Positions 61,279 to 62,817 of a DNA stretch of 64,000 bases are shown here, piece after piece. The stretch lies in NCBI GenBank assembly GCA_029260875.1, contig JAJDCL010000011.1:62401-126400 (forward strand), written 5' to 3'. The translations under genes and the position numbers were made by a program. Source of the DNA: Candidatus Saccharimonadota bacterium (lineage in GTDB: Bacteria > Patescibacteriota > Saccharimonadia > Saccharimonadales > OFTM59). The notes beneath the pieces were generated by a model. That model searched no databases, had not been told where the DNA came from, and saw nothing but the letters and a program-made list of their open reading frames with translations. Position 1 is the stretch's first letter. The number at the start of each line of letters is the position of its first letter.

Positions 61279-61565
61279 AGCATCATCTTATCAGATATCA
61301 ACCCCGTGGTTTCAAAATCCAAACTTGGTAGCCCGAATACGTCCGAACTGGAACGAAATCTGTACAGAGCTAAAGAGGTGGGTTCAGGTTATGAGGGTGC
61401 TACCTCTGGCTACCTAGACAGGCAGCTGGGGCTAGAACTGCCCGAGCGTAGCGACCAGGCATTCTATCCCAGCAACCCCCTTCACTGCAACCCTGTTGTG
61501 CTTACATCCTAAATTGGCTTTACTTACATAATTTTTTAAAACATGTAATACTTAACAGATAAGTA

Positions 61566-61594
61566 TTGACAATTATGCTTACATAATTTACAAT
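61566..61594 (+). promoter_or_regulatory. Sigma70-type promoter TTGACA-N17-TACAAT upstream of the fic gene, abutted by the palindrome aatactta-acag-ataagtatt (61547..61567)
   Basis: ttgaca(61566-71), attatgcttacataatt(17 nt), tacaat(61589-94). The RBS aaaagga lies 7 nt before the ATG at 61617. Confidence 0.6.
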
Positions 61595-61616
61595 GTGGAT
61601 AACAAAAGGATTAGTT

Positions 61617-62817
61617 ATGACTCGTCACAAAAATGACCATGAAAAGCTATTCTCATTGCCTGCTCCACTCCTTGACTCAAAGGTAGCGGGTTTAGTCCTG
61701 GAGCTTGAAACACTTAGGAGTAGAGAGCTGAGTGGTACCACGCCCCCCCTGGATATTCTTTGGGGTTAAGAACTTGTTCCAAACGGTTGAGAGTGTAATC
61801 TCAACGCATATTGAGGGGAATAACACCACTATTGCTGCTTATGTAGAAGCAGCCCGCAATATCAAAAAGAAAATCAATATTGATCAGAAGATTAAAATGA
61901 TTCTTAATCTTGAGAACACTATCAAAGACATAGAGAAGGAAGTTGATACAAACACAGCCTTTAATAAAGGATTTATCCTTGATCTTCATAGAAAAGTGGT
62001 AGACGGCTTGGACACAACTCGGGACGGTGAGGGGGACGCACGCCCTGGTGCGTACAGGAATGAGCATCGTGAGATACAGAACTATACCCATGTTCTTCCT
62101 CAGCATACAGACTTACGCGACCTTATGGATCAACTGATCAAATTCATCAATACTCCTGTGCCTCATACGATGGAGCTGATTAAGATTGCCATTGTGCACC
62201 ACAGATTTGTATGGATACATCCGTTCGGGAACGGCAATGGACGTGTAGTACGCTTACTTACATATGCAATGCTGGTTAGGGCTGGCTATATTGACAAGGA
62301 TGGCAATAGGCTTTTAGACCCAACAGCTGTATTTGGATCAAATAAGCTCACTTACTACGATAAGCTCTCTGGAGCTGATGATTTAAGCGAAGAGGGAGCT
62401 ACTGCCTGGTGTGAGTACATGCTTTCTGGGCTTACTCAAGAAATCCATAAGATTGACCAGCTATTAGACGCAGACTTTACTAAGCGAGAGATCGTCATAC
62501 CAGCAATAATCTATGCACACGAAAAGCAAAAGATCACAAAGCTAGAAAGAGACATGCTTCTGGTTTGTGTTGATAAGAACTTGGTTGCCGCTAGCGACTT
62601 CCGCGATCTATTCCCCGCAAGTACCTCACACGTCCGCATCTCACAGGTAATTAATAAGCTCAGGGAACAGAACCTTGTTCAAGCACCACGTCCAGGAGCA
62701 AGGAAGTACATGCTTTGCATGAACAATAATCTACTTACTACGGGCATCTTAAGAAAGTTAGATGAAAACGGCTTTTTGCCACCTATACAGCCAGGCGCAA
62801 CAAACCAAACAGTATAG
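61617..62817 (+). pseudogene. fic: Fic/Doc-family protein gene disrupted by a +1 frameshift in a C7 homopolymer (61743..61749)
   Basis: The N-terminal 50 codons (61617..61769) end at a TAA. The body (61732..62817) has no ATG and begins at GTG. The Fic motif is HPFGNGNGRVVR. Deleting one C fuses them into ...LSGTTPPWIFFGVKNLFQTVESVISTHIEGNNTT. Confidence 0.6.

Follow-up and report, generated by a model that had tools for sequence, protein, structure and literature searches.

Near its right-hand end, a 64,000-nucleotide (nt) stretch of DNA from a Candidatus Saccharimonadota bacterium (contig JAJDCL010000011.1; hereafter the window, whose numbering is used throughout) carries a fic gene under a consensus-like promoter, with a reading frame that breaks at a run of seven C. 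The locus raises the question of what this break is. The original prediction offered a phase switch, a pseudogene or a sequencing error; of these, a recent and real null is favoured by the analysis described here, and a phase switch and a read error are possible but disfavoured. The gene is probably a class II Fic gene of the type of CccR from Yersinia pseudotuberculosis, knocked out by a recent, real and lineage-specific gain of one C. Locus features were read directly from the window sequence. The promoter, palindrome, start codon, C7 run, second frame and active-site motif described previously were all found in place, with small corrections needed.

The gene lies on the plus strand and starts at an ATG (61617-61619) 6 nt downstream of a ribosome-binding site AAGGA (61606-61610). 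Orthologous proteins begin, by alignment, at a Met equivalent to this codon (MTRHK...). Public calls of 407 amino acids (aa) for orthologues at loci L163, L168 and L170 (MWITKGL... or MLITKGL...) start at an ATG within the conserved -10/transcription-start region (window positions 61593-61616); the ATG that corresponds to 61617 is almost certainly their true start, and the proteins would then have 399 aa. Codons 1-44 (MTRHK...SGTTPP; 61617-61748, frame 0) are colinear with the intact 399-aa orthologues and run into the frameshifting lesion, the C7 run at 61743-61749, which consists of Pro-Pro (CCC CCC) plus one extra C. Six out-of-frame codons follow before TAA at 61767-61769. The first 50 codons, thought to resemble a Fic N-terminus, thus contain 44 authentic ones and a tail of six that do not belong to the protein. 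The 3' part of the gene (W45 to V399 and stop, 61750-62817) continues in the +1 frame and was delimited by the Pfam Fic domain, the alignment to the CccR structure 7XUX and invariant family columns. This frame is open through to the stop codon at 62815-62817, and the corresponding mechanical open reading frame (ORF; 61732-62817) has 361 aa and a GTG start. As predicted, deletion of one C yields a full-length protein of 399 aa in which Pfam recognises a Fic domain. Its alignment to every orthologue has no gap over the frameshift site (...SGTTPPWIFFGVKNLFQTVESVISTHIEGNNTT...), and the one-C reconstruction is therefore correct.

The restored protein matched PF02661 (Fic) with E = 5e-17 and 63 bits against a cut-off of 24 (residues 116-219), in agreement with the naming of the gene as fic. 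A search with it returned thousands of relatives. The closest were 84-92% identical, nearly all 397-407 aa long and intact, and those with names came from metagenome-assembled genomes of Candidatus Saccharibacteria or Saccharimonadales. Remoter relatives (about 40-50% identity) were spread across Bacteroidota, Ignavibacteriota, Patescibacteria and other phyla. When the family profile was compared with solved structures, a single match covered the whole length, namely 7XUX (E = 2.2e-127); the next best was FICD (E about 3e-18). A single-sequence phmmer comparison with 7XUX gave E = 9.5e-71 and about 40% identity between query residues 13-389 and chain residues 10-379, and the homology takes in the C-terminal helix-turn-helix (HTH) domain (CccR residues 276-380). 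The structure 7XUX is that of CccR, a Fic protein of Y. pseudotuberculosis (Wang et al., Nat Commun 2022; PMC9755527).

The Fic motif of the restored protein reads H201PFGNGNGRVVR212, with HPFGNGNGR at residues 201-209 (62218-62244). It departs from the canonical HxFx(D/E)GNGRxxR at position 5, where Asn replaces Asp or Glu; all other positions fit. This Asn had been regarded as a hint of altered chemistry, a view that was not sustained. All 117 homologues with a recognisable motif carry Asn at this position, and CccR, in which the motif is H192PFGNGNGRTVR203 and HPFGNGNGR is identical, AMPylates FtsZ at Thr8, its H192A mutant being inactive (PMC9755527). The Asn is a hallmark of a large, widespread subfamily and goes together with AMPylation in CccR, the only member assayed. 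About 30 viral or prophage contigs in IMG/VR (L176-L204) also encode full-length Fic relatives with the Asn motif, at 35-41% identity.

Residues S62, E66, G67, H201, N205 and R212 were invariant in an alignment of 25 sequences reaching into Bacteroidota. The first three belong to the motif S62-T-H-I-E-G67, which conforms to the inhibitory-helix pattern (S/T)xxxE(G/N), is located N-terminal to the Fic motif in the same polypeptide and aligns with S59ARIEG, the internal inhibitory helix of the class II protein CccR (PMC9755527). The restored protein is thus a predicted class II Fic with an intramolecular N-terminal inhibitory helix. An antitoxin partner had been suggested. Since the helix is internal to the protein, no separate antitoxin is expected, and DNA homology between loci stops at or just after the stop codon, two loci reaching 62912-62913. 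Judged from its sequence, the locus is a CccR-type class II Fic-HTH gene of Candidatus Saccharibacteria, i.e. a broken copy from a known family.

The history of the C tract was traced by comparing the DNA of 13 distinct orthologous loci. The pair of Pro codons at this site reads CCT CCT, CCG CCA, CCT CCA, CCA CCG, CCA CCT, CCG CCT, CCT CCC or CCG CCC in these loci; the longest C run is four, and none has an extra base. The window alone reads ACG CCC CCC C TGG, and the restored gene is colinear with its intact relatives, so that the extra C is private to the window. Given the mixed Pro codons of the 13 loci, the tract is a recent accident, made of a synonymous change and then a one-base gain, and not a conserved device. 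In such a scenario the two synonymous Pro codons would have become CCC CCC, and the run would then have grown from C6 to C7.

This result bears directly on phase variation, in which slipped-strand mispairing would toggle a toxic Fic between C6 (ON) and C7 (OFF) within the population. The homopolymer is located near the 5' end of the coding sequence and the frame is regained by a change of a single base, as such a switch requires; however, the tract is absent from 13 of 13 orthologous loci. Seven C is at the short end of the tracts known to phase-vary, and runs of at least seven C or G are not enriched in the window (3 observed against 3.4 expected from composition). Phase variation is unlikely on these grounds.

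One further orthologue, at L005 (CP064992.1), is also frame-disrupted. It shows two separate one-base deletions within the first 55 codons (at about 4043 and 4150), and its database call P0025 has 355 aa and begins in the shifted frame. This is either an independent inactivation or the result of assembly errors in CP064992.1.

A second set of data concerns the reality of the seventh C. Logan assemblies of the runs SRR15505512 and SRR15505513 each contain one contig that agrees with the window at all of 4,210 nt, C7 included, so that C7 is found in all three available assemblies (NCBI and two Logan). Broken products of 50 aa and 361 aa (P0002) are recorded from the NCBI contig of 128,183 nt and from the Logan assemblies. 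In a collection of about 15 billion proteins, exact look-ups of the restored sequences (399 aa and 407 aa) had no hit, and no intact allele is recorded. The 407-aa protein P0122, which belongs to the cluster of the N-terminal fragment, was considered as an intact allele and rejected, being a 92%-identical orthologue and a different allele. The uniform C7 and the missing C6 allele in the protein collection are further points against a switch. They also bear on the possibility of a sequencing or assembly artefact, in which the real sequence would be C6 and the gene intact. Homopolymers are the classic source of indel errors, the gene is otherwise perfectly conserved with a single lesion, and the three assemblies may share reads or platform, all of which would suit an artefact. 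Against it, two separate runs that were assembled independently agree on C7. A general homopolymer error in the assembly was rejected as well: the two other C7 runs (19433 and 49288) and every listed run (at least six C or G, or at least seven A or T) are located inside uninterrupted long ORFs. We therefore regard an artefact as rather doubtful.

If the gene had been broken for long, its coding sequence might show decay. The ratio of non-synonymous to synonymous substitution rates (dN/dS) was 0.030-0.046 between the restored gene and its orthologues and 0.024-0.047 among intact orthologues. Private substitutions at otherwise invariant positions numbered three (S156Y, I293V and I354V), compared to 0-6 in intact orthologues. 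Decay of the broken fic was thus rejected, as neither a raised dN/dS nor an excess of private substitutions was seen, and the restored coding sequence is under normal purifying selection. The lesion is recent in evolutionary terms, since the remainder of the gene is undamaged. Purifying selection on the remainder and the lack of a second lesion are likewise in line with a phase switch, and an OFF state could be advantageous, given that Fic proteins of this type are toxic when deregulated (PMC9755527; PMC12249575).

Two further explanations would leave the C7 allele productive. In the first, +1 ribosomal frameshifting on CCC_CCC_C or transcriptional slippage would yield some full-length Fic and so throttle the toxin. 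At CCC-C sites, perfect re-pairing of a Pro tRNA is possible after a +1 slip. The slippery run is conserved in no orthologue, however, and the sequence offers neither a stop or obviously slow codon after the site nor a Shine-Dalgarno-like stimulator just upstream, which makes recoding extremely improbable. In the second, the 361-aa ORF would be translated separately from GTG 61732 into a truncated Fic without helix 1. An AGGAG (61714-61718) is located 13 nt upstream of this GTG, and the product would keep the inhibitory helix, the catalytic core and the HTH domain. In CccR, dimerisation via the N-terminal loop and helix 1 is required for repression and dispensable for toxicity (PMC9755527), so a product of this kind is conceivable. 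Yet in all orthologues the AGGAG belongs to normal, conserved coding sequence (Leu-Arg-Ser). A spacing of 13 nt is long, the start is within the upstream reading frame, and no orthologue is organised in this way. Split expression is accordingly very unlikely.

The C7 allele is most simply a null allele, i.e. an incipient pseudogene, and not a designed switch. Translation would end after 50 codons, and the gene would be off in this genome. The intact 399-aa enzyme would have three parts, including an N-terminal helical region that bears the inhibitory helix S62THIEG67 and a Fic core in which the motif is HPFGNGNGRVVR, as is typical of the family. Homology to CccR suggests that the enzyme would AMPylate a target protein with ATP as donor and would probably repress its own strongly conserved sigma-70-type promoter.

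Several points weigh against this picture of a null mutation in a CccR-like gene. Regarding the lesion, the Logan runs may be source data of the NCBI assembly, so the three assemblies are not fully independent. The tract length is known from assemblies; a minority of the population may carry C6, or the platform may err systematically at homopolymers. An undamaged rest of the gene is equally expected from a reversible ON/OFF switch. Regarding function, AMPylation, the target protein and autorepression are all suggested by one full-length homologue of about 40% identity. The HTH domain of CccR binds two 10-base-pair (bp) inverted repeats spaced 26 bp apart near the -35/-10 region and thereby represses its own promoter (PMC9755527). 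This operator, AGATAATCAT-N26-inverted copy, is absent from the window locus. Of the CccR dimer residues (N13, D17, D22 and K175), D17 corresponds to a conserved Asp (D20) in the single-sequence alignment; N13 and K175 are aligned to other residues.

The control region of the gene was then compared between loci, conservation being expressed as identity to the window over 10 loci. Baselines were 51% for third codon positions and 59% for unconstrained intergenic DNA. Synonymous divergence (dS) between fic orthologues ranges from 0.9 to above 3, i.e. synonymous sites are near saturation. A sigma-70-type promoter is located on the plus strand and comprises TTGACA (61566-61571), a 17-nt spacer (61572-61588) and TACAAT (61589-61594). 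With 11 of 12 consensus matches it was the best promoter-like site in the region in a consensus scan. Identity amounts to 89% for the -35 hexamer, 93% for the spacer, 89% for the -10 hexamer and 90% for the 5' leader (61595-61616). The whole block from -35 to the ATG is 89-98% conserved, compared to 51% at third codon positions, and the consensus promoter proposed for this site therefore looks functional and strong.

The palindrome that overlaps this promoter, AATACTTA-ACAGA-TAAGTATT, had been put forward as a possible repressor site. Its arms (61547-61554 and 61560-61567) are perfect inverted copies, as described; the spacer is 5 nt (ACAGA), not 4 nt. The left arm is 50% identical to the orthologues, which is background, and the right arm 71%, which is partly raised by its overlap with the -35 hexamer. 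A perfect palindrome occurs in no orthologue; the closest, at L168, keeps the right arm and not the left. When the 338-nt intergenic region was shuffled, 4.5% of the shuffles contained a perfect palindrome with 8-nt arms and a spacer of 3-10 nt. The palindrome was therefore rejected as an operator, its arms being unconserved and perfect in this genome only, and it is apparently a private coincidence. Only the invariant centre ACAGA (61555-61559; 100% identity), which belongs to the conserved core TAACAGAT (61552-61559), was kept as constrained. Over the whole window, perfect 8-nt-arm inverted repeats with 3-10 nt spacers number 28 against 6.8 in shuffles, an about fourfold excess.

Other elements of the region are better conserved. 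The sequence CTTACAT occurs at 61501, 61523 and 61578 (22 and 55 nt apart), in direct and not inverted orientation and, like TAACAGAT, invariant or nearly so. The first copy is part of conserved box 1, TGCTTACATCC (61499-61509, plus strand, 100% identity), which is found near the left edge of shared DNA homology: blastn homology to L162, L164 and L166 starts at 61490-61496. The second copy forms box 2 (61523-61529, plus strand, 100% identity) and belongs to an exact 12-nt direct repeat, CTTACATAATTT, whose second copy is at 61578, with a spacing of 55 nt. The third copy (61578-61584, plus strand) is located inside a 13-4-13 quasi-palindrome, ATTGACAATTATG-CTTA-CATAATTTACAAT (61565-61594, plus strand), which spans -35 to -10 and is 85% complementary. 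Arms CATAATT and AATTATG, 37 nt apart, are a further conserved candidate for binding of a regulator. If there is an operator, it is more likely to be found among the CTTACAT boxes, TAACAGAT and the -35-to-10 quasi-palindrome. Inverted repeats in the 160 nt upstream of 162 family members showed no excess in a crude test, the best 10-mer giving 8.53 matches compared to 8.43 in shuffled sequences.

A DnaA-box consensus, TTATCCACA, is located on the minus strand at 61594-61602, where it overlaps the end of the -10 hexamer and the expected transcription start and precedes the ribosome-binding site. It is the only perfect DnaA-box consensus in the 64-kb window; at least one occurs in 37% of shuffles, so this is not significant alone. 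The site is 98% conserved among the 10 loci and is present exactly or with one mismatch in 13 of 14 loci (the window and 12 of 13 orthologues). It is exact in L170 and L174, has one mismatch in L172 and is absent in L171. We treat the DnaA box as a lead only.

Upstream of these boxes and divergent from fic, a conserved non-coding element of about 165 nt was detected on the minus strand (61320-61488) by nhmmer and covariation; it is a candidate structured small RNA. Full-length copies were found by nhmmer at nine distinct loci, counting the window; at seven of these the copy is directly upstream of fic. Four more loci have fragments. The copies outside the window are located at L003 2562-2727, L004 3709-3872, L082 107-278, L162 5302-5468, L166 3694-3860, L168 1025-1192, L170 3722-3884 and L005 3697-3855. 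A structure of 19 pairs was 90% paired over the nine sequences, compared to 12-52% when partners were slid; five pairs had compensatory changes, and the covariation score was above that of 500 of 500 shuffles. The predicted fold consists of a long 5' hairpin and a second hairpin backed by compensatory changes; in domain 2 no consistent consensus structure was obtained past one hairpin. Invariant U-G pairs, possible on the minus strand only, place the element on that strand, and a strong terminator-like hairpin with a T run follows 3' of it on the minus strand in L003, L004, L082 and L166. Rfam gave no match around fic or in the element at E <= 1 and E <= 10, its hits in the whole window being two tRNAs only. 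A 91-aa ORF at 61237-61512 was tried as a partner gene and rejected, as it had no Pfam hit, its orthologue indels were not multiples of three and its conservation was not codon-like. Taken together, the element looks like an unannotated small RNA of Saccharibacteria that usually adjoins fic.

Partial copies of its 5' or 3' parts occur at L163 (3798-3884 and 7465-7538), L003 (3820-3862), L164 (3751-3861) and L171 (6579-6642 and 6139-6202). At L003, a 45-nt 5' fragment adjoins fic and the full copy is 1.1 kb away; at L162, the full copy is downstream of fic. The scattered partial copies suggest repeated rearrangement or insertion at the fic spot.

DNA homology between the window and orthologous loci comprises the upstream element, the promoter and fic only; it ends at the stop codon in most loci and in none extends past 62913. 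The neighbours of fic vary by genome. The gene is often found between a Pyr_redox_2/ATP-cone pair and a DivIC-like gene; elsewhere it adjoins a HinfI-type restriction-modification pair (L163), an rve integrase (L164) or a zeta-toxin-like kinase (L171). The site looks like a hotspot for accessory genes. A discrete accessory unit of this kind fits a role as toxin, defence gene or regulator, and it fits occasional loss. The fic region had been described as AT-rich relative to its neighbours, which is weakly true and marginal: the G+C content is 42.6% for the fic locus and 45.8% for the window, the dip is confined to 61500-61999 (36%), and values as low as 37% occur elsewhere in the window.

A regulated module can be imagined from these parts, in which the divergent RNA of about 165 nt, three phased CTTACAT boxes, a DnaA box at the transcription start and a CccR-like AMPylase/repressor act together and C6/C7 is a reversible OFF state. 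We hold this to be very doubtful; if true, protein AMPylation might be tied to replication or to the state of the cell cycle in a minimal-genome epibiotic bacterium. With regard to the null mutation favoured here, the finding itself matters little, the fic copy being a broken member of a family with a solved structure and a described mechanism. Of wider use is that CccR-type Fic-HTH genes reach into Candidatus Saccharibacteria, in which gene and promoter form a tightly conserved unit whose surroundings vary. A large subfamily is defined by the Asn Fic motif, and scans that flag this Asn as aberrant would raise false alarms. The RNA-like element and the invariant promoter boxes are cheap targets for work on gene regulation in hard-to-culture Saccharibacteria. 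Literature searches for Fic in Saccharibacteria, for the motif string and for the sequencing-run accessions found nothing.

Compared with known systems, the restored protein shares with canonical AMPylating Fic enzymes (FICD/HYPE, VopS and IbpA) the Fic fold, the catalytic His, the Phe, GNGR and the final Arg. It differs from them by Asn in place of the acidic residue at motif position 5, here and family-wide. The broken gene resembles phase-variable genes of Neisseria, Haemophilus and Campylobacter in that poly-C is located early in the coding sequence and its length sets the frame. Unlike in those contingency genes, the tract is short (7), is found in one genome only and is not maintained in orthologues; its length does not vary among the available assemblies, and G/C tracts are not enriched in the window.

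The PADLOC model for SoFic, PDLC03963, was matched with E = 6.8e-45 (residues 53-373 against profile positions 55-355 of 361). Like SoFic, a single-gene anti-phage defence (EcSofic/AS1; PMC12249575), the restored protein is a class II Fic with a C-terminal domain. The gene likewise has a variable neighbourhood, with restriction-modification genes, an integrase or a zeta-toxin-like gene adjoining in some orthologous loci, and has relatives on about 30 IMG/VR viral contigs. By contrast, the NCBIfam equivalog NF046030 scores 40.1 bits against a cut-off of 550, and solved SoFic structures match the Fic core alone (E about 1e-8). Sofic of E. coli H397 has a small downstream antitoxin gene, AS1, of 47 aa (PMC12249575). 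In the window, a search for an AS1-like small downstream gene yielded only unconserved mechanical ORFs 3' of fic, and orthologue DNA homology is never seen beyond 62913.

CccR itself is exported by the type VI secretion system, and Thr8 of its target FtsZ is reported to be conserved only in Enterobacteriaceae (PMC9755527). The window gene differs from CccR in being frameshifted and in an identity of about 40%. The likenesses are homology over the full length, an identical HPFGNGNGR, an N-terminal SxxIEG helix, a C-terminal HTH-type domain and the arrangement as a single gene under its own strong promoter.

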